Shown here piece by piece: positions 3,152 to 58,522 of a stretch of 64,000 nt of DNA. A program made the translations under genes and the position numbers. Position 1 is the first letter of the stretch, and each line of letters starts with the position of its first letter. Source of the stretch: Clostridiaceae bacterium (GTDB lineage: Bacteria > Bacillota > Clostridia > Acetivibrionales > DTU013); assembly GCA_012519745.1 (NCBI GenBank), contig JAAYPO010000081.1, forward strand, positions 5,096 through 69,095, written 5' to 3'. Under the pieces are notes generated by a model. That model had not been told where the DNA came from. It worked only from the letters and a program-made list of their open reading frames with translations, and searched no databases.

Positions 3152-3372
3152 CACGTCTGGATGAATTTGCAAGTAAGGGCAGTGCCATGAAATCCTAGTG
3201 GATGAATTTGCAAGTAAGGGCATTAATTGTGATATACAATGGAGACATAATGTAAGGTATCGCGATTTATGTAATCTTTTTATGGATTATATGCAACAAA
3301 ATAGTTCATTACCCTACCCTTTCTTGAAAAATCATCCACTAGGATTCTCAACTTGCATTTTAGTCCACCCGG
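3152..3372. repeat. Dispersed repeat element, copy A (canonical orientation)
   Basis: Two direct arms TGGATGAATTTGCAAGTAAGGGCA at 3158-3181 and 3199-3222 (41 bp phase). A conserved core follows. An inverted arm CTTGAAAAATCATCCACTAGGATT lies at about 3323-3348, plus a degenerate second inverted arm at about 3352-3370. Confidence 0.85.
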
Positions 3373-3498: not shown

Positions 3499-4848
3499 TT
3501 ATTGTCCTTCGGGTCTGTTGCTGATATCAATGGCCATGTCGCCGGAACCCAGTGAATTTTCCGGCCTGTTTTCACCACCCACAGCCATATTCTGGGCCTT
3601 CGCCCCGATGTTTGCCGGAGAGATCTGGTTGAGGTTATAGATATTGCCTACTGAATCCATATCCTTCTCAGAAACAGTATTGGCAACGATCTGACGCCCA
3701 TCCAAAAATCCCCGGATACCCTTTATTATCTCATCGAGGACAGCATCTGATTTATTCATATCCATAACATAGCGGGCTCTTTCAAGGTTGTAAGGACCCG
3801 TACATGCAAATGTGCAGGACGTGATCTCTGAAACGATCAGCCAGGGTGTGAAGGAAGTTCTGACAACAACGTTTTCACTTCTGGTCGAGTCGGTTATTGC
3901 CATACCAACGGATATTTTCGATTCCGTATAGGTGCCTTCCCCTTTAAAATGGATCAGGATGCTCTTGAAGTTGATTTCAGCCCATACGATATGGGCGATA
4001 TTTATGGCAATGGTTCCAAAGGACCATAAAAGCAGCGGAACAAAAAATGTTTCCATGATCGATGCGAACGAAGTCAGATCGGGCAGATCCCTGTTCTTCA
4101 GGAACAGCAGCAATGCAGACAGGCATACGAGCAGATGACCGTAAGCAGAGGTCACCAATCTCAGGATCGAATAGATCGCCGGGAATTTTATCTCCTCATG
4201 GATCGGCTGGGTCTCCTGGATGGTATCACCTTCAAAGCTGCCTTTATCGGTGCTTCCCTCCATGACCAGCTGCGGTTTCATCTCACGATATATCCTGTTC
4301 GGTATTTCTTTATATCTCGAATTTGCCATTTCCATGTCAAGACTTCTGAATATGTCTTTCGGATGCACATTCTCCTGCCAATGATCACGGTATTCTGAAA
4401 CCTCTGTCTTCGGATTGAGCATCTCCGCACGTTTCTTTGCTATGAACAGTGCATCGGCAATCGAAACGATCATTAGTATTACAACGAGCAGCAAATAAAC
4501 AGTCGGGTCCAGAGGGGCTTCAGGGATCACTGCCCCTTTCCTCAGCCTCAGCTCACAGATGACCGGAGCAATGACAGCCAGAGCCGTCATGATCAAAACA
4601 CCGTTCAGACTGACGGATTCTATCTTGAGTCTATTGACCCTTTTGATAGAAAGATTGTTAGGCTTCCAGATAATGAGCAATAAGACCGCAAGTATCAGAC
4701 CCATCCATTGCGGATACGATGAATCGGCCAGTTTTGTCAGCCCTACCGAGCCGGATAAAATAGCGATCAGATATATAATAAGGATCATTATGGAATATGC
4801 TGCCTTGTGAGCTATGACATGAACATAGTTCCTGATCGGGTAGGGCAA
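3499..4848 (-). CDS. Hypothetical multi-pass membrane protein (possibly the distal part of a frameshifted larger gene)
   Basis: 449 aa ORF with a TTG start. It has several hydrophobic helices in the N-terminal and central parts and a soluble C-terminal region. I recognise no family. Confidence 0.55.
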   Translation of the reverse strand: MPYPIRNYVHVIAHKAAYSIMILIIYLIAILSGSVGLTKLADSSYPQWMGLILAVLLLIIWKPNNLSIKRVNRLKIESVSLNGVLIMTALAVIAPVICELRLRKGAVIPEAPLDPTVYLLLVVILMIVSIADALFIAKKRAEMLNPKTEVSEYRDHWQENVHPKDIFRSLDMEMANSRYKEIPNRIYREMKPQLVMEGSTDKGSFEGDTIQETQPIHEEIKFPAIYSILRLVTSAYGHLLVCLSALLLFLKNRDLPDLTSFASIMETFFVPLLLWSFGTIAINIAHIVWAEINFKSILIHFKGEGTYTESKISVGMAITDSTRSENVVVRTSFTPWLIVSEITSCTFACTGPYNLERARYVMDMNKSDAVLDEIIKGIRGFLDGRQIVANTVSEKDMDSVGNIYNLNQISPANIGAKAQNMAVGGENRPENSLGSGDMAIDISNRPEGQ

Positions 4849-5249
4849 AAACAGGAATCTCGGAAAAACGCGAAGGTTGGGTTCTTTCTGCCCATCAGCA
4901 TCTGTTCAAGATGCTTTGATTCATACATCACCTCCGGTTCATTGGTAAGTGATTCACTCGGAGCAAAGTTTTGGGACAGGCTTGCCGGTATACCTCTGCC
5001 CACATAAAAACGGAAAATCTTCAACAGCCCGCTAAGAAAATATCTGATCCCGACCCCTAAAAGCAATATACTGATGATCAGGTTCACCCATCCTGCAGTC
5101 GAACCACTATCTAAAATGCGACTCCGGAGCGTCAGCAGCGATATTGCTCCGATAGCGGAACATACAGCTCCACTGGCCAAGGACAGTAGACCTTCCTTTT
5201 TAAAAGGGTTAGGAATATCGATTGAATCTGAACCGTATTGAAATGACAT
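4812..5249 (-). CDS. Hypothetical membrane protein (possibly the proximal part of the same gene as 3499-4848)
   Basis: 145 aa ORF with two hydrophobic segments. It overlaps the next ORF by 37 nt. The downstream ORF's frame stays open upstream to about 4906. Confidence 0.5.
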   Translation of the reverse strand: MSFQYGSDSIDIPNPFKKEGLLSLASGAVCSAIGAISLLTLRSRILDSGSTAGWVNLIISILLLGVGIRYFLSGLLKIFRFYVGRGIPASLSQNFAPSESLTNEPEVMYESKHLEQMLMGRKNPTFAFFRDSCFCPTRSGTMFMS

Positions 5250-5346
5250 TTTACGGCCCCCTCTTATGTAATTAGTACAATTTTACAATACTATTTTATT
5301 ATTGTCGAGAATATTAATAGTACAGGCAACATTTGAGAATTTTCTT

Positions 5347-5354
5347 CATATACT
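5347..5354 (+). promoter_or_regulatory. Candidate sigma-E/K type -10 element (CATATACT) upstream of sigK
   Basis: CATATACT resembles the mother-cell sigma -10 consensus CATACAnT. It lies about 35-40 nt upstream of the sigK start. This is a motif resemblance only. Confidence 0.25.
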
Positions 5355-5380
5355 TATACGGTGACTAATTTTTACGGGAG

Positions 5381-19126: not shown

Positions 19127-20086
19127 ATGAAGATAGTAATTTTAGACGGATATACTGAAAATCCCGGCGATCTCAGCTGGGAAGGCTTTGAGTCTCTCGG
19201 CGAGCTTGTGGTCTATGACCGCACAAAGCAGGAGGATATTATTCCGAGAATAGGAAATGCTGAAATAGTGATAACTAATAAAACCCCCCTGGACAAAAAA
19301 GTATTTGAAGCCTGTCCATCAATAAAATATGTCGGTGTCCTGGCTACCGGCTATAATGTAGTTGATATTGAAGCTGCAAAGGAAAGAAACATACCGGTCT
19401 CCAACATCCCCACATACGGTACTGCAGCTGTTGCTCAATACACATTCGCTTTGCTGCTGGAGATATGTCACCATGTAGGAAAGCATAATGATGCCGTCAA
19501 ATCAGGGAAATGGACTTCCTGTCCCGATTTCTGCTTCTGGGATTATCCACTTATCGAGCTGGCAGGAAAAACCTTTGGGTGTATCGGTTACGGAAGGATT
19601 GGCCAGAACGCCGGAAAACTGGCCCAGTGCTTTGGTATGAAGGTAATTGCCTATGACGAGTACCAAAACAAGGAGCTTGAGAACGAGAACATGCGGTATG
19701 TCGATCTCGACACACTTCTTGCAGAGTCAGATGTGATTTCACTGCACTGCCCTCTTCTGCCGTCAACAAATGGCATCATCAACAAGGATACCATTGCAAA
19801 AATGAAAGATGGCGTGATAATCATAAACACATCCAGAGGCCCGCTGATAGTGGAAGAGGACCTCAAAAAGGGACTTGTCGATGGCAAAATATATTATGCG
19901 GCCGTGGATGTGGTATCGTCAGAGCCCATCTCGGAAGACAACCCGCTGCTGACAGCGCCTAACTGCATCATCACACCTCACATCGCATGGGCGCCGAAGG
20001 AGAGCCGCAAACGGCTGCTGGACATAGCAGTCAGCAACCTGGAAGCCTATCTGTCCGGCAAGCCTGTCAATGTTGTCAACGGCTGA
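19127..20086 (+). CDS. D-isomer-specific 2-hydroxyacid dehydrogenase (glycerate/hydroxypyruvate reductase-like)
   Basis: GCIGYGRIGQ NAD-binding motif. INTSRG...D and TPHIAW catalytic motifs. Confidence 0.88.
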   Translation: MKIVILDGYTENPGDLSWEGFESLGELVVYDRTKQEDIIPRIGNAEIVITNKTPLDKKVFEACPSIKYVGVLATGYNVVDIEAAKERNIPVSNIPTYGTAAVAQYTFALLLEICHHVGKHNDAVKSGKWTSCPDFCFWDYPLIELAGKTFGCIGYGRIGQNAGKLAQCFGMKVIAYDEYQNKELENENMRYVDLDTLLAESDVISLHCPLLPSTNGIINKDTIAKMKDGVIIINTSRGPLIVEEDLKKGLVDGKIYYAAVDVVSSEPISEDNPLLTAPNCIITPHIAWAPKESRKRLLDIAVSNLEAYLSGKPVNVVNG

Positions 20087-20089
20087 GCC

Positions 20090-20270
20090 GCTGCGGCCGT
20101 TGGGCCGTTGGGCTGCTGGGCCGTTGGGCCGCTGGGCCGCTGGGCCGCTGGGCCGTTGGGCTGCTGGGCCGCTGGGCCGCTGGGCTGGCTTGGCCGTTGG
20201 ACCGCTGGGCCGCTGGGCTGCTGGGCTGATGGGCTGGCTTGGCCGGCTGAGACGTTACAGCAATTAGTGT
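20090..20270. repeat. GC-rich 9-bp tandem repeat array (about 20 units; consensus GGGCCGYTG)
   Basis: Directly visible periodicity. It starts just after the TGA stop at 20084-20086. It is flanked by a 14-bp direct repeat TGAGCCGCTGCGGC at 20084-20097 and 20283-20296. Confidence 0.9.
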
Positions 20271-29887: not shown

Positions 29888-29916
29888 AATTTTAAATTAT
29901 AGTATAAATAATGTCA
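29888..29916 (-). promoter_or_regulatory. Sigma-A type promoter upstream of typA
   Basis: Minus strand reads TTGACA, a 17 nt spacer, then TAAAAT. Confidence 0.5.
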
Positions 29917-29983
29917 ACAAAATCAAAATCGCCTGCCCGGCCGGACGGCATAAAAAGGTAACGGCCGGTTCCCCCTGACAAAC

Positions 29984-30255
29984 GACTGTTTTTTCAAATA
30001 AGGGCATCACACCCCTGACCGACTGGATGATTTTCCAGGTAGGGGCATCACACCCCTGCCCAACTGGATGATTTTTCAGGTAAGGGCAGCCATAAAAATT
30101 CTAGTGGATGATTTTTCAAGTAAGGGCAGGAAATCTGGCGATTTTATTGAGCATAATCCATAAACAGAATACATAATTCGGGATATCATACATTATGTTG
30201 CCTTAAAAAGACAACATCTATGCCCTTACTTGCAAATTCATCCAGTAGGATTTTT
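29984..30255. repeat. Dispersed repeat element, copy B (inverted relative to copies A and C; expanded arm array)
   Basis: Arms TGGATGATTTT(T/C)CA(A/G)GTA(A/G)GGGCA start at 30024, 30065 and 30105 (41/40 bp phase), plus a partial arm at about 29986. The core is the reverse complement of the copy A/C core. An inverted arm TGCCCTTACTTGCAAATTCATCCAGTAGGA lies at 30221-30250. Confidence 0.85.
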
Positions 30256-30330
30256 ATTCTTCCCTTTATACAATTAATTTGGCTATCTGGATCCTGCACC
30301 CTTGCCAAATTTGCAGATCCACCCTCATAG

Positions 30331-30355
30331 AAAAGCCCCCTGCAGTATCACAGGG
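30331..30355 (-). terminator. Weak hairpin plus T-run after the HD-GYP regulator gene
   Basis: Minus strand reads CCCTG-tgatactg-CAGGGG followed by CTTTTC. Confidence 0.35.
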
Positions 30356-30392
30356 AGCCGGCGGTACTTCACTTAGCAGGCAGAGAATACAT

Positions 30393-52082: not shown

Positions 52083-52289
52083 TCCTGGTGGATGAATTTG
52101 CAGGTAAGGGCAGCTCAAAAAATCCTGGTGGATGAATTTGCAGGTAAGGGCAGAGATTTCATTATGTTACAGTAACATAATACTCAATATCTCGATTTAT
52201 GTATTCTAATTATGGACCATATGCAATAATATTGCTCTAAACCAATCAGTCATCTTACCCTTAGTTGCAAATTCATCCACTAGGATTTT
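52083..52289. repeat. Dispersed repeat element, copy C (canonical orientation)
   Basis: Arms TGGATGAATTTGCAGGTAAGGGCA at 52089-52112 and 52129-52152 (40 bp phase). A perfect 10-bp hairpin ATTATGTTAC-a-GTAACATAAT. The core is about 80% identical by eye to copy A. An inverted arm TTGCAAATTCATCCACTAGGA ends at about 52286. Confidence 0.85.
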
Positions 52290-52297
52290 AAGCTGTA

Positions 52298-52358
52298 GGA
52301 AAGGGGACGTTTCTCAGCCATCGAAGCCATGCCTCATGCAGAGAAGCGTCCCCTTTCC
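52298..52358 (-). terminator. Long hairpin 2 nt after the spoIVA stop (no clear U-tract on the minus strand)
   Basis: GGAAAGGGGACG(TTTCTC), a 25 nt loop, then (GAGAAG)CGTCCCCTTTCC. The T-run is on the plus side only. Confidence 0.4.
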
Positions 52359-54970: not shown

Positions 54971-56428
54971 TTAGTATTTTAATTCAACAACAACCGTATC
55001 CTCGTACACAGTGATCCCGCTGACCACTGCTTCTGCCATCTCATGGGTCAGCTCGCCCCTGGAAAACATTGCTGCCGCAGCTTTCCCCAGTGTGATTAGT
55101 TCAGATGAGGAAGCATCTCTGGTCCTGTGGCTTTCCACCTCACCTTCCAGCAATGCCAGCCGTCTTTCCAGCTGCAGGTTCATCCTCTCAAACAGCTGCT
55201 CCGAGATCCTGCCCTCAAGCCTGTCTTTGTAAAGCAGTTCCTGCTGGCGCCGGCCGTATTCCAACTGGGTGCATATTCTCGAATATGCAGCAGTGCGTTC
55301 ATTACTGCCCTGTGATGCTATTCTCTCCTGCAATTCCAGTATCTCCTTGTTATCTTCAAACAACCCTGCCAGCTCGCGGCAAATAGGCGCCACGATATCA
55401 TCCTCATAGACAAAATGGCTGGAGCATACTGCCTTTCCCTTTCTGCAGTAATTACCGCAGACATATGCCGTACCATTCCTGCGTTTCCTGGCGTACATAG
55501 TGCTGCCGCAGTCACCACAGGTCATTATGCCGTTCAATATGTGCCGGCTTTTGTTCCGGCTGATCTTACTGCTGTTCCTTGCATTCCTGAGCCTTTGCAC
55601 CTCTTCATATGCTTCCCTGGATATGATGGCCTCATGAGTACCTTCTGTTATTACCCACTTCTCCTGCGGAAGCCTCCGTGTCTTTTTGCTTTTGAAGCTG
55701 ACCTTTTCACTGACTCCCTGTACCGTATCACCAATATATACGCGGGAACAAAGTATACGTCTGACAGTTATCCTGTTCCACCCCTCACCCCTCGGTGCGC
55801 CGTACCCTTTTTTTTCCAGATATTTCGAAATGGATGAATAACCATGACCGGATATATAGAGAGAGTATATTATCTTTACGATATATGCCTCGGCTTCATC
55901 TATGACCAGCTTGTTTTTTTCAATATCGGACTTTCTATATCCAAAGGGCGCCCTGCCTAAATACTCGCCCCTTTGTATCTTAAAGCGAAGGCATGCGCGT
56001 ATCTTTCTGGAAATATCACGCACGTACCTCTCATTTACCCATGTCTCGATGCCTACGGTGTCATTGTCCACAAGACTGTCATAACGTCCGTCTGCGGTCA
56101 AGAGCCTGACGCCGCACTCCTCGAGGTAATCTATCATCTGCAGTGTCTTGGCATTGTTCCTTCCCAGCCGCGAGAGATCCTTCAGCAGCACCAGATCGAT
56201 CCTGCCGGCGGATATATCCCTTTTCAGCCTGTCCAGACCTTCTCTCTCAAACGCCGACCCCGACACATTATCATCGACATAAATGCCGCAGATCCGGCCA
56301 AGCCGGTTTACAGACACATACTCCAGCAGCAGGTCCCTCTGGTTCTCGATGGACTCATGGTTTTCTCCGCTGTCATCTCTGCTTATCCTGACATAGATCC
56401 CTATATTGCTCTGTCTGCAGTTCCCCAT
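54971..56428 (-). CDS. Large serine recombinase (resolvase N-domain, recombinase domain, zinc ribbon, coiled coil; SpoIVCA/TnpX-like)
   Basis: IGIYVRISRDDS...NQ (catalytic Ser region), DLSRLGRN, GRAPFGY, and zinc ribbon CGDCG...CGNYC. The C-terminus ...TVYEDTVVVELKY resembles the SpoIVCA end. The likely start is MGNCRQ at 56428. Confidence 0.9.
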   Translation of the reverse strand: MGNCRQSNIGIYVRISRDDSGENHESIENQRDLLLEYVSVNRLGRICGIYVDDNVSGSAFEREGLDRLKRDISAGRIDLVLLKDLSRLGRNNAKTLQMIDYLEECGVRLLTADGRYDSLVDNDTVGIETWVNERYVRDISRKIRACLRFKIQRGEYLGRAPFGYRKSDIEKNKLVIDEAEAYIVKIIYSLYISGHGYSSISKYLEKKGYGAPRGEGWNRITVRRILCSRVYIGDTVQGVSEKVSFKSKKTRRLPQEKWVITEGTHEAIISREAYEEVQRLRNARNSSKISRNKSRHILNGIMTCGDCGSTMYARKRRNGTAYVCGNYCRKGKAVCSSHFVYEDDIVAPICRELAGLFEDNKEILELQERIASQGSNERTAAYSRICTQLEYGRRQQELLYKDRLEGRISEQLFERMNLQLERRLALLEGEVESHRTRDASSSELITLGKAAAAMFSRGELTHEMAEAVVSGITVYEDTVVVELKY

Positions 56429-56631
56429 TATATGATGCCCGCTCCCTGGTGCCGCGGGACACAAGCCTCAGCAGCTTCAGCCTGATATCTCCGGCTTTCT
56501 CCCTGCCGGTATGGCAGATCACGATCCTTTTTTGCCGTTTCCTTCTCCCATCCACAGTATGAGGCCTCCCATCAGCACTTCTGATATATGGTATATATAT
56601 ATTTCATGGTATTTGTCCATTAGAAATGATA

Positions 56632-57004: not shown

Positions 57005-57400
57005 GCAGGCGGTGACAGGCAGAGGGTCGGTACGACATTCGGACTACAGCAAACATGCGGAAGGCCGGTACTGCATTCAGACATCTGGAACTGGAACAGG
57101 CGGAGGGCCGGTACTGCATTCAATGACTGCAAGCGTTACAGATGCTTCGGTATCACGCAGTTCAAATGAGGCACCAGGCACCACAACCTGCGGCACGGAT
57201 GCCGCAGGCGCTGCGTCCGAGCCACGGATGGCGAGTGACCAGCGCCCTCATTTGAGCAAGTGATGCCGATTAGCAGATGTTCGCGAAGCAGTCTGAATAC
57301 AGTACCGGCCCTCCACCTGTTCTGAAGAAGTCCGGCTGTCGTACCGGCCTTTCGCCTGTCTGCTGCAGTCCGGCCGCAGTACCGGACTGTGGTCGGATCG
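57005..57400. repeat. About 400-bp nested inverted-repeat structure with phased CGGTAC motifs
   Basis: CGGTAC at 57028, 57066 and 57109. The complement GTACCG at 57302, 57341 and 57379 (38-43 bp phase). The arms are mutually reverse-complementary. Inner palindromes include CCTGCGGCA-cgga-TGCCGCAGG (57187-57208) and TCAAATGAGG/CCTCATTTGA. Confidence 0.85.
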
Positions 57401-57406
57401 TCTGCT

Positions 57407-58522
57407 TTATTTGAAAAAGCTTTTCAGCTCGTACATGCCCCACCTGCACTGCAGGTATTTGCCTGCGAGGGCTTTATCAAGCAGCGATTCATGCATGCAC
57501 AGCGATGCTGCAAATGAACGCTTATCAATAAGCTTCAGCGCCTTTGGCCCCTCTCTGAAAAACTCTCTGCGGCATTCGCATATTTTCTGGGCTATAGCAA
57601 AAATGATATCCTCACGCTGCTCCAGGCATTTGATCAGCCACACTGCCCTGCTCAGCAGATCCCTCAGTTTAACACCGCCCTCCTCCCCGTCCAGAGATGA
57701 CTTGACTGCAAATGCTTCAGATATGCAAACATTCGGAAAAGCTTCCCCATTGTATATCACATGAATATCTCCTCTGGTATCCCGGACCATTATATCCGGC
57801 AGTGCACGATTTATCGGCACATTGCTGCAATACTCCCGTCCGGGTATAGGCTCAAGGCTTTTGACCTTTTTAAAGGCCTCCCTGACACGGTTGATGGTCA
57901 ATCCCGTAGCACCTGCCACATATTGGGCATCATCATCGGCGACTGCATTCAGGTAACCGTCCACCACAAGCATGGCGTCAAAATCCTGCCGCTCCATCTG
58001 TTTGAGCTGGATCAGCAGGCACTCCTTCAGATCCCGTGCACATATCCCCGGAGGATCCAGTGACTGCAGTTCCTCCAGCACATCGAGCACCAGGGTCTCC
58101 GGAACATTGAAAAAAGCAGCTGTCTCAGCAATATCAGCTTTCAGATAGCCATTTTCATCCGTGTTGTCTATAAGGAATTCTCCGATACTGTAGCTGGTCT
58201 TGTCGGGACATAACGCTTCAAATTGCAGCAAGAGATGCTGCTTGAGCGAAAGGATCCTTTCCGGTGCTTCTATTACATGATCGTTGATCTGGGAATCATT
58301 TTCATAATCGTTTGTATATGCTGTGTACACATCAGCATATGATCCTGCCAAAGCAGCTTCATCCGGTGCTCCTTCAAGTACGGGATTGGTTTCGAGCTGG
58401 TTTTCGATGTATTGGAAAAGTTCGCCGGAGTTCATTTCAAGTATTTCGATGGCCTGCTTCAGTTGAGGTATGAGCAGAAGCTTCTGTGAACGTACATGGC
58501 TGAAGTCAAAATTATACTCCAA
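57407..58522 (-). pseudogene. rpoN: RNA polymerase sigma-54 homologue lacking the C-terminal RpoN-box segment (truncated or split)
   Basis: Region I: LIPQLKQAIEILEMNSGELFQYIENQLETNPVLE. Core-binding region: ..LDPPGICARDLKECLLIQL. HTH: MHESLLDKALAGKYLQCRWGMYELKSFF. The stop follows immediately. About 65-75 aa, including the RRTVAKYR-type RpoN box, are absent. Confidence 0.65.

Follow-up and report, generated by a model that had tools for sequence, protein, structure and literature searches.

A modular intergenic repeat with a tandem 41-bp arm array between an HD-GYP response-regulator gene and typA in an uncultured member of the Clostridia

The DNA stretch of 64,000 nt analysed here (the window) originates from a metagenome-assembled genome (MAG) of a spore-forming member of the Bacillota labelled Clostridiaceae. 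Its nearest named relatives, as judged by the phosphoglucomutase (PGM), are Acetivibrio and Pseudoclostridium with about 70% identity. The window carries three copies, A, B and C, of a repeat element in which short arms flank a core. All three are intergenic: Copy A lies between an accessory gene of 449 aa and an amidase gene, copy B between the gene for an HD-GYP response regulator and typA, and copy C between spoIVA and the PGM gene. Copy B (29983-30244), the subject of this analysis, comprises three full arms, one partial arm of 25 nt, a core of about 90 bp and one inverted arm. On balance, it is regarded as a member of a dispersed, non-coding, modular repeat family similar to BIME/REPIN, BOX and minisatellite-containing MITEs (miniature transposable elements with inverted repeats). 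At least 30 full copies of this family were found in five or more related uncultured Clostridia.

A 24-nt arm pattern, allowing up to 3 mismatches, matched nine times in the window, each time in copy A, B or C, and not once in 100 shuffles. In copy B, the array is located on the plus strand. Its innermost arm (30105-30129), identified by arm match and alignment, adjoins the 3' end of the core. The second unit, TGGATGATTTTTCAGGTAAGGGCAG, extends from 30065 to 30089 and the third, TGGATGATTTTCCAGGTAGGGGCAT, from 30024 to 30048. These three arms share 88-100% identity. The fourth unit (29983-30007) is a partial or decayed arm with 72% identity to the reference arm and lies in the 41-bp register. 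From arm to arm, the steps are 41, 41 and 40 bp, and Tandem Repeats Finder (TRF) reports a period of 41. Three full arms plus one partial arm at starts 30024, 30065 and 30105 had already been described in the initial annotation, and this description holds. Unit-for-unit alignment with the neighbouring 41-bp units suggests a very decayed fifth unit (29941-29982, plus strand), a region that had earlier resembled a terminator hairpin. The interleaved motif, which had also been noticed initially, is GGCATCACACCCCTG. It occurs exactly twice in the window, at 30003-30017 and 30044-30058 on the plus strand, with an expectation of 0. Each of the two spacer motifs (together 30003-30058) can pair with the GGGG end of the preceding arm. 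The fold of GGCATCACACCCCTG with this arm yields -7.3 kcal/mol and a z-score of -1.4, which is not significant.

According to the core alignments, the core of copy B (30130-30219, minus strand) has the canonical orientation and is directed through the array to typA. It contains the palindrome ACATAA-N16-TTATGT (30171-30198), which occupies invariant alignment columns throughout the family. A single intact arm, inverted with respect to the array, is located at the 5' end of the core (30220/30221-30244, minus strand). The distance from 30105 to 30244 amounts to exactly 140 bp. Alignment and sequence point to a decayed second arm on the 5' side (30259-30285, minus strand), and a decayed third arm (30293-30323, minus strand) occupies the same position as the solo arm of a sister species. 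With the decayed arms included, copy B spans about 29941-30323. It is thus longer than initially stated.

Copy B is placed between the terminator of the regulator gene and the conserved typA promoter. The intrinsic terminator (30334-30359, minus strand) lies just upstream of copy B and is conserved in the sister species. The near-consensus typA promoter TTGACA-17-TAAAAT (29889-29917, minus strand) lies just downstream and is kept in relatives that lack the element. Copy B is dispensable for typA expression and probably exerts a modulating effect at most.

The other two copies, delimited by arm pattern and alignments, are assigned to the plus strand. Copy A (3158-3338) consists of arms at 3158-3182 and 3199-3223, a core at 3224-3313 and an inverted arm at 3314-3338. 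Copy C (52089-52279) has arms at 52089-52113 and 52129-52153, a core with 11 extra bp and an inverted arm at 52255-52279. Its core of about 101-103 bp includes an 11-bp insertion that is otherwise unique to C among 26 aligned copies. Copy B can be aligned without gaps, in inverted orientation, over 157 nt with copy A (78%) and over 118 nt with copy C (75%). This confirms the view that the cores of A and C correspond to the B core read as its reverse complement. A swap of the arm variants, proposed along with it, applies to A versus B but not to C, since both sides of copy C carry AATTTGCA-type arms. The outer arm of copy A resembles the 5'-type inner arm.

Relatives were searched in an arm scan with a degenerate pattern that covered one genome per species. 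Multi-arm loci were detected in two MAGs alone, Bacillota bacterium OH_CBB_73 and OH_CBrB_222. Both stem from organisms other than that of the window; the flanking DNA in OH_CBB_73 is 75-86% identical to that of the window. Four further copies came from one JGI metagenome, and others from relatives found via TypA and PGM homologues. OH_CBB_73 contributes 20 aligned full copies plus further arm arrays; the window has 3 copies in 64 kb. Geometry and core alignment are based on 26 full copies from three genomes. In 22 of these 26, the inner inverted arms measure 140 bp from outer end to outer end. Of the other four, two have a span of 139 bp, one of 141 bp and one of 151 bp, the latter corresponding to an additional helical turn. 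As terminal inverted repeats, the arms are 25-29 nt long and 83-93% complementary. Within the core, ACATAA and TTATGT, 16 nt apart, are invariant in the aligned copies, and most other positions vary.

The repeat unit consists of a conserved 25-nt arm, TGGATGAWWTTKCAAKTARGGGCAG, and a weakly conserved 16-nt spacer. It forms 31 arrays of 2-11 units, with a step of 41 bp in 107 of 111 cases. Spacers are 61% identical inside one array versus 39% across arrays, which indicates local duplication. In 19 of the 20 copies of OH_CBB_73, as in copy B, a single arm is located on the 5' side of the core and the array on its 3' side. The array is found on the 5' side of the core in copies A and C and at one further locus (L044). 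This means, the layout of copy B is the usual form of the family, and A and C are unusual. The initial description of B as an inverted copy is correct relative to A and C, but not for the family as a whole.

Arms and cores evolve differently. Among copies of one genome, identity amounts to 91% for the arms and 65% for the cores; between genomes, the values are 83% and 60%. For one orthologous pair (L012/L039), 86% were determined for the arms, 59% for the cores and about 81% for the flanks. Cores drift without insertions or deletions, and arms stay near a genome-specific consensus. On either side of the element, the arm sequence is specific to the species, as exemplified by GGTCAAAATTGCAGGTACAGTCC in a related genome (L088). 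In the RNAalifold consensus, the arms are paired with each other and a few pairs seem compensatory across genomes. Partner-specific compensation was not found in OH_CBB_73, where arm identity is 0.867 within the same element and 0.868 between different elements (p=0.62). The RNAalifold signal thus reflects a between-genome effect, as covariation within the genome is missing. Cores fold little better than shuffled sequences (mean z -1.0). The arm is not palindromic, its consensus folding with -0.1 to -0.9 kcal/mol (z about 0), and single arm-spacer units fold no better than shuffles.

Seventeen of 25 copies contain a sigma-A-like hexamer pair, (A/G/T)TGACA-17-AATTAT (e.g. ATGACA), at a fixed position with agreement at 8-11 of 12 positions. 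It overlaps the invariant palindrome and is directed through the array. In copies A, B and C the hexamers remain below the threshold; copy B agrees at 7 of 12 positions. The 3' neighbour gene is co-stranded in 16 of 25 elements (26 scored, one without a neighbour; based on crude calls of open reading frames, ORFs). Many copies possibly provide an outward promoter, though the neighbouring genes do not require one. Both typA and the PGM gene retain their own conserved promoters downstream of the element.

All copies of the family are intergenic and reside beside unrelated housekeeping genes including hrcA, priA, infC, feoB, trpE and typA. About half of them are located between diverging genes, again by crude ORF calls. 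An all-against-all BLAST of the flanking proteins revealed neither a recurrent neighbour family nor a regulon.

Orthologous loci illustrate how the element changes. In the species of the window, the B locus was recovered three times: One assembly (L052) is identical over 9.9 kb, a second (L053) across the spacer and a third (L054) from the core to typA. A sister species (TypA 94% identical) has the genes for the non-ribosomal peptide synthetase (NRPS), kinase, regulator, TypA and MltG in the same order. Its regulator-typA spacer of 246 bp contains one solo arm unit and neither core nor array (L056). Species with 88-92% TypA identity have kept kinase, regulator and typA as well as the terminator and the typA promoter, and no arm is present. 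As judged from these spacers, copy B is either a lineage-specific gain or would have been lost in the sister species.

At the spoIVA-PGM locus of copy C, the sister species (PGM 90%) has an orthologous element with a core of about 101-103 bp and the same 11-bp insertion. The two cores match to 74% in inverted but only to 53% in direct orientation. The outermost bases have not moved (...CCTAG toward spoIVA, CCTGG toward PGM); the inner two-thirds of the arms moved with the core. Since the outer bases are fixed, the breakpoints of the flip fall inside TGGATGAATTTGCA, a 14-nt part of the arm. In a third species (PGM 89%), the element is oriented as in the sister species and has 1|4 arms, which suggests that copy C of the window represents the derived, flipped state. 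Compared with the orthologues in two related species, copy C thus lies in the opposite orientation. In a fourth species (PGM 85%), the element is flipped and has 3|2 arms, and the arm has diverged alike on both sides. In a fifth species (L079), the element is absent. Altogether, the spoIVA-PGM element is present in four species with 1|2, 1|1, 1|4 and 3|2 arms. At another locus, the three species compared (L012, L039 and L070) differ in their arms, with 1+6 and 1+3 in two of them and 2+2 along with an inverted core in the third (67% identity inverted versus 46% direct).

Flips have occurred at no fewer than two loci. At least two loci, B versus L056 and L035 versus L025, differ by a full element versus a solo arm at the orthologous site. 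Together with the remaining arm-free B-locus relatives (L056-L065 in all) and the empty C locus in L079, these are MITE-like presence/absence patterns. The number of arms changed in every orthologous comparison. It ranges from 1 to 11 overall and includes 6, 3 and 2+2 at the single locus mentioned above. The two expectations of the initial annotation that arm number varies and that the element can adopt either orientation therefore proved right, the latter by the inverted orthologue of copy C with breakpoints inside the arms. In the orthologous comparisons, such variation was found between species only. Within the species of the window, none of the assemblies (three covering B and six covering A) deviates from the window in arm number or orientation. 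These nine agreeing assemblies and the 19:1 bias in the side of the array argue against frequent unbiased flipping; consensus assemblies could hide minority states. A search pattern for a flipped copy B did not match in a metagenome collection, which does not contain the B locus itself.

The same synteny bears on the proposal that copy B marks the insertion boundary of the operon encoding the NRPS and the two-component system, being a scar or attachment site of its integration beside typA. At 32-38 kb, the kinase and NRPS genes have a GC content of 0.38 versus about 0.47 elsewhere, and the kinase type varies between species, which would agree with an insertion. However, the sister species has kept the order NRPS-kinase-regulator-typA with a solo arm alone and without copy B, every relative examined has retained the junction of regulator and typA, and the same repeat occurs at many unrelated loci. 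The boundary proposal is ruled out by synteny in six related species or strains, and we assign it next to no probability. In the window, the NRPS is a single-module enzyme (C-A-T-reductase). At the same place, the sister species has a HisKA_7TM kinase and a larger NRPS gene (at least 2472 aa). The drop in GC content and the different kinase and NRPS suggest a cassette replacement inside a conserved locus.

Taken as a member of a dispersed repeat family, copy B would have been shaped by three kinds of events. Arms together with their 16-nt spacers multiply or disappear in steps of 41 bp, usually on the 3' side of the core and probably through slippage or unequal exchange. The core may be flipped in place by recombination or template switching between inverted arms. 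Whole elements would be gained or lost, with solo arms left behind. The events as such were observed in the comparisons; their mechanisms are deduced. Arms near the genome consensus, drifting cores and the lack of hairpin compensation point to recognition of the arm by a factor acting in trans. Most likely, arms are recognition sites of a DNA-binding protein, transposase-like or domesticated, that would be encoded elsewhere. A 41-bp step corresponds to about four helical turns, by which bound proteins could be positioned on one face of the DNA.

Established classes were searched for. Rfam 15 yielded no match to the element at the gathering score in the window and 18 loci, only one tRNA gene in L044; at E<1, matches were at chance level. 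A CRISPR array, in which identical repeats alternate with unique spacers of about 30 nt or more, was rejected: Arms have 25 nt, spacers 16 nt, and the latter are 61% alike within an array. A coding repeat was discarded, too. Short ORFs ending in the TGA of the arm exist in A and C but have no counterpart in B, and a period of 41 bp, which is no multiple of 3, argues against coding. Resemblances noticed by eye to a sigma-54 promoter, a DnaA box, a CodY box, Xer/dif sites or Hin hix sites each fall short in spacing or matches; in the case of Xer/dif, ACATAA is separated from TTATGT by 16 nt instead of 6. Viral contigs, plasmids and phages did not match the element.

Several points weigh against a dispersed repeat family of this kind. 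Neither an autonomous element nor a transposase, RAYT or recombinase was found near the copies in about 600 kb sampled. With approximate sequences of IS200 TnpA and the E. coli RAYT as queries, phmmer detected nothing below E=0.5 in 2048 ORF fragments of the sampled loci. Likewise, approximate queries revealed no Xer-type or serine recombinase near copies in the sampled loci of two MAGs. As the query sequences were approximate, this negative result for an enzyme is weak. In none of the fetched loci does a pair of arms flank a gene. No target-site duplication is apparent at the two filled-versus-solo comparisons, where decayed arms blur the ends of the element; L035/L025 exhibits a possible 6-nt microhomology, CAGCTC. 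The proposed arm-binding protein is postulated purely from the pattern of conservation. The long vertical persistence at one locus and the strict conservation of length are not typical of selfish junk and point to a function for the host. Finally, sigma-A-like promoters in 17 of 25 copies and two flips among few comparisons would suit a regulatory switch equally well.

Such a switch belongs to the rival explanations. In a programmed inversion system of the inverton type, a dedicated site-specific recombinase would flip the core promoter, with extra arms as accessory or alternative sites and the fixed 140-bp geometry as phasing for the synapsis of a short loop. Inverted arms around a length-constrained segment, of which one variant is 11 bp longer, would be expected in this case. 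The same is true for orthologous elements whose orientation differs between species, seen at two loci with breakpoints confined to 14 nt of the arm, for the promoter-like -35/-10 pair directed through the array and for the co-stranded 3' neighbours. States with '1+n' and 'n+1' arms could result from flips between different arm pairs. On the other side, the assemblies of the window species agree in one orientation at B and A, and 19 of 20 arrays of OH_CBB_73 on one side of the core are not expected under frequent unbiased flipping. In addition, the outer arm of copy A resembles the 5'-type inner arm, which speaks for duplication and not for a flip, a recombinase is missing near the copies in two MAGs, and all three window copies have degenerate promoter hexamers; typA and the PGM gene keep conserved promoters of their own downstream of the element. 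Furthermore, small hairpin-flanked inversions can arise without a dedicated enzyme. Overall, we consider a programmed switch unlikely. A far-reaching version of it, genome-wide mini-invertons of about 140 bp, appears somewhat less probable still: Here, a dedicated arm-binding recombinase would flip the core promoter upstream of dozens of housekeeping genes, in-phase arm arrays would be accessory or alternative crossover sites that bias the switch, and a second repeat family in the window (57014-57388), with unrelated arms, would operate in parallel by means of a separate enzyme.

Alternatively, the arms could be operators or sites for a nucleoid protein upstream of promoters, and the family a host regulon and not mobile DNA. 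In favour of such a cis-regulatory array, the arms are far more conserved than the cores, toward a genome-wide consensus and not toward the partner arm, and are spaced in phase by 41 bp. Copies B and C are located about 50-70 bp upstream of conserved promoters, approximately half of the copies lie between diverging genes, and one locus has kept the element in four species. Yet, the downstream genes have no common function, close relatives manage the same, unchanged promoters without the element, and the number of sites changes freely between species. Moreover, the second element has the same architecture with unrelated arms, which better fits selfish repeat families. A host regulon is therefore doubtful, to about the same degree as the mini-invertons. 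It is very improbable that the 41-nt modules act as RNA, e.g. as a small RNA gene or structured leader serving as protein sponge or processing site. The core has a promoter-like site directed through the array, inverted arms might form a long stem, and some arm-spacer junctions short hairpins. These features are outweighed by the failure to match Rfam at the gathering score, by arms of the same element that are not extra complementary, and by folds of cores and single units that hardly or not at all surpass those of shuffles. A consistent terminator after the arrays was not found, either.

The dispersed repeat family preferred here can be compared with known systems. REPINs and BIMEs are REP doublets mobilised by RAYT transposases in Pseudomonas and enterobacteria (PMC3116915, PMC2817692). 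Shared features are two conserved inverted repeats of about 25 nt around a less conserved spacer of constant length, singlet remnants, ordered tandem arrays, intergenic copies in numbers of tens to hundreds per genome, genome-specific repeat types and long vertical persistence. In contrast to REP sequences, the arm is no imperfect palindrome and lacks compensatory hairpin changes. A single-copy RAYT (Y1 transposase) flanked by repeats, typical of this class, was not found in the sampled sequence. The arrays are direct repeats of one arm with a strict 41-bp period instead of alternating REPs, and the host belongs to the Clostridia.

BOX elements of Streptococcus pneumoniae have the structure boxA-(boxB)n-boxC (PMC3049150). 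They are modular intergenic repeats of a Gram-positive host, too, with a tandem module (boxB) whose number varies by locus and strain, complementary terminal modules and a location near gene starts with a possible effect on expression; clear target duplications and a dedicated transposase are not known for either. Unlike in BOX, the amplified module is the terminal arm outside the core and not an internal box, a comparison that concerns layout and not sequence. Core length is strictly fixed and in-place flips are documented in the present family. The BrickBuilt MITE of Porphyromonas gingivalis contains a 23-nt minisatellite (PMC4596501). Both are small, species-restricted intergenic elements whose ends are inverted and which contain a variable array of tandem repeats as well as promoter-like segments. 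However, the array of BrickBuilt is internal, has a 23-nt period and no spacers, and its leader and tail subunits differ, without a fixed arm-core-arm geometry.

Invertons are invertible promoters with master invertases (PMC11602134, PMC10028968). Like them, the family has inverted repeats around a short intergenic segment, a repeat consensus common to many loci and both orientations at one locus, here between species only. Unlike in invertons, the assemblies of the window species show one orientation only, and no invertase is linked to the family. To our knowledge, tandem repeat arrays are no feature of known invertons. The segment of about 90 bp is probably also shorter than in most known cases. 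In chloroplasts, non-coding small inversions are associated with hairpins: A short loop bounded by inverted repeats changes its orientation time and again, independently in related lineages, and no dedicated recombinase is involved. These are single loci of an organelle, whereas the present repeat is a dispersed family with arrays.

A non-palindromic arm, the lack of hairpin compensation, the failure to find a RAYT in the sampled sequence and the amplified terminal repeat place the family outside REPIN/BIME, BOX and BrickBuilt. It appears to be previously undescribed: It works like these three but belongs to none of them, and organism and modules also differ from those of BOX. Much work has been done on the small interspersed repeats of proteobacteria (REP/BIME/REPIN) and streptococci (BOX), and hardly any have been described in Clostridia. 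The family offers a comparative record of persistence at one locus in at least four species, concerted species-specific arm evolution, step-wise growth of 41-bp arrays and repeated in-place flips. Both the maintenance of such repeats and the identity of the protein that reads them thereby become accessible to tests. In practice, such repeats can be mistaken for CRISPR-like arrays, terminators or operon boundaries. Their interest would increase if switching at the level of reads or an arm-binding protein were found.

The second element in the window (57014-57388) starts with three direct 28-nt arms, AACAGGCGGAGGGCCGGTACTGCATTCA, with a period of 38-43 bp. A core of about 171 bp follows, and then three inverted arms with a period of 38-39 bp. 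Part of this core (57215-57300) corresponds to a module abutting the 5' arm of many first-family copies in OH_CBB_73. Another repeated module of about 240 bp (...TTATGGCATATAATCGGATTA..TTGAGTTATGTAGACTCCAGA...GGTTTTTGCACAC) was detected just outside 3' arm arrays in both MAGs (L012 about 5100-5360, L023, L033, L049, L051).

The spoIVA-PGM spacer contains additional repeats. In the sister species (L076, about 2040-2230), approximately three tandem terminator-like hairpin repeats of about 64 bp (ACGTTTCTCAGCCCTCGGAGCC...GAAGCGTCCCCTTTCC) follow spoIVA; the window has a single copy (52296-52350). In a related species (L087, 460-720), a repeat of about 11 bp, GGATCAAGGCT / GGACCAAGGTC, occurs in approximately 24 copies directly after the arm array. 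A gene for a large serine recombinase (54971-56464, minus strand; Resolvase, Recombinase and Zn_ribbon domains) is located 2.7 kb from copy C and shows no link to the arms. Next to it, a sigma-54-like gene (57407-58522, minus strand) encodes 371 aa ending with ...ELKSFFK. It covers just positions 5-88 of the 160-position profile of the DNA-binding domain, and an RpoN box was not found anywhere in the window. Possibly, an rpoN has been split or has decayed here, with an element lying in between.

At the copy A locus, the adjoining 449-aa ORF (3499-4848) has no close homologue in the sister species, so that an orthologous locus was not found there. The ORF has no Pfam domain, and its closest non-self match is 72% identical. 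Homologues of about 580-600 aa exist in Paenibacillus, Acetivibrio and Aliikangiella. It is an accessory gene and may be truncated here. Elsewhere in the window, an 8-bp repeat, GCTGGGCC, with about 19 copies (20082-20234, TRF score 190) is situated just downstream of an ORF for a 2-hydroxyacid dehydrogenase. Six independent Logan assemblies of the window species all stop at 3194, just outside the inner arm of the duplicated pair of copy A, and other contigs begin inside the core of copy B (L054) or at the arm of copy C (L078). Assembly ends at all three copies indicate that these repeats systematically break short-read assemblies.

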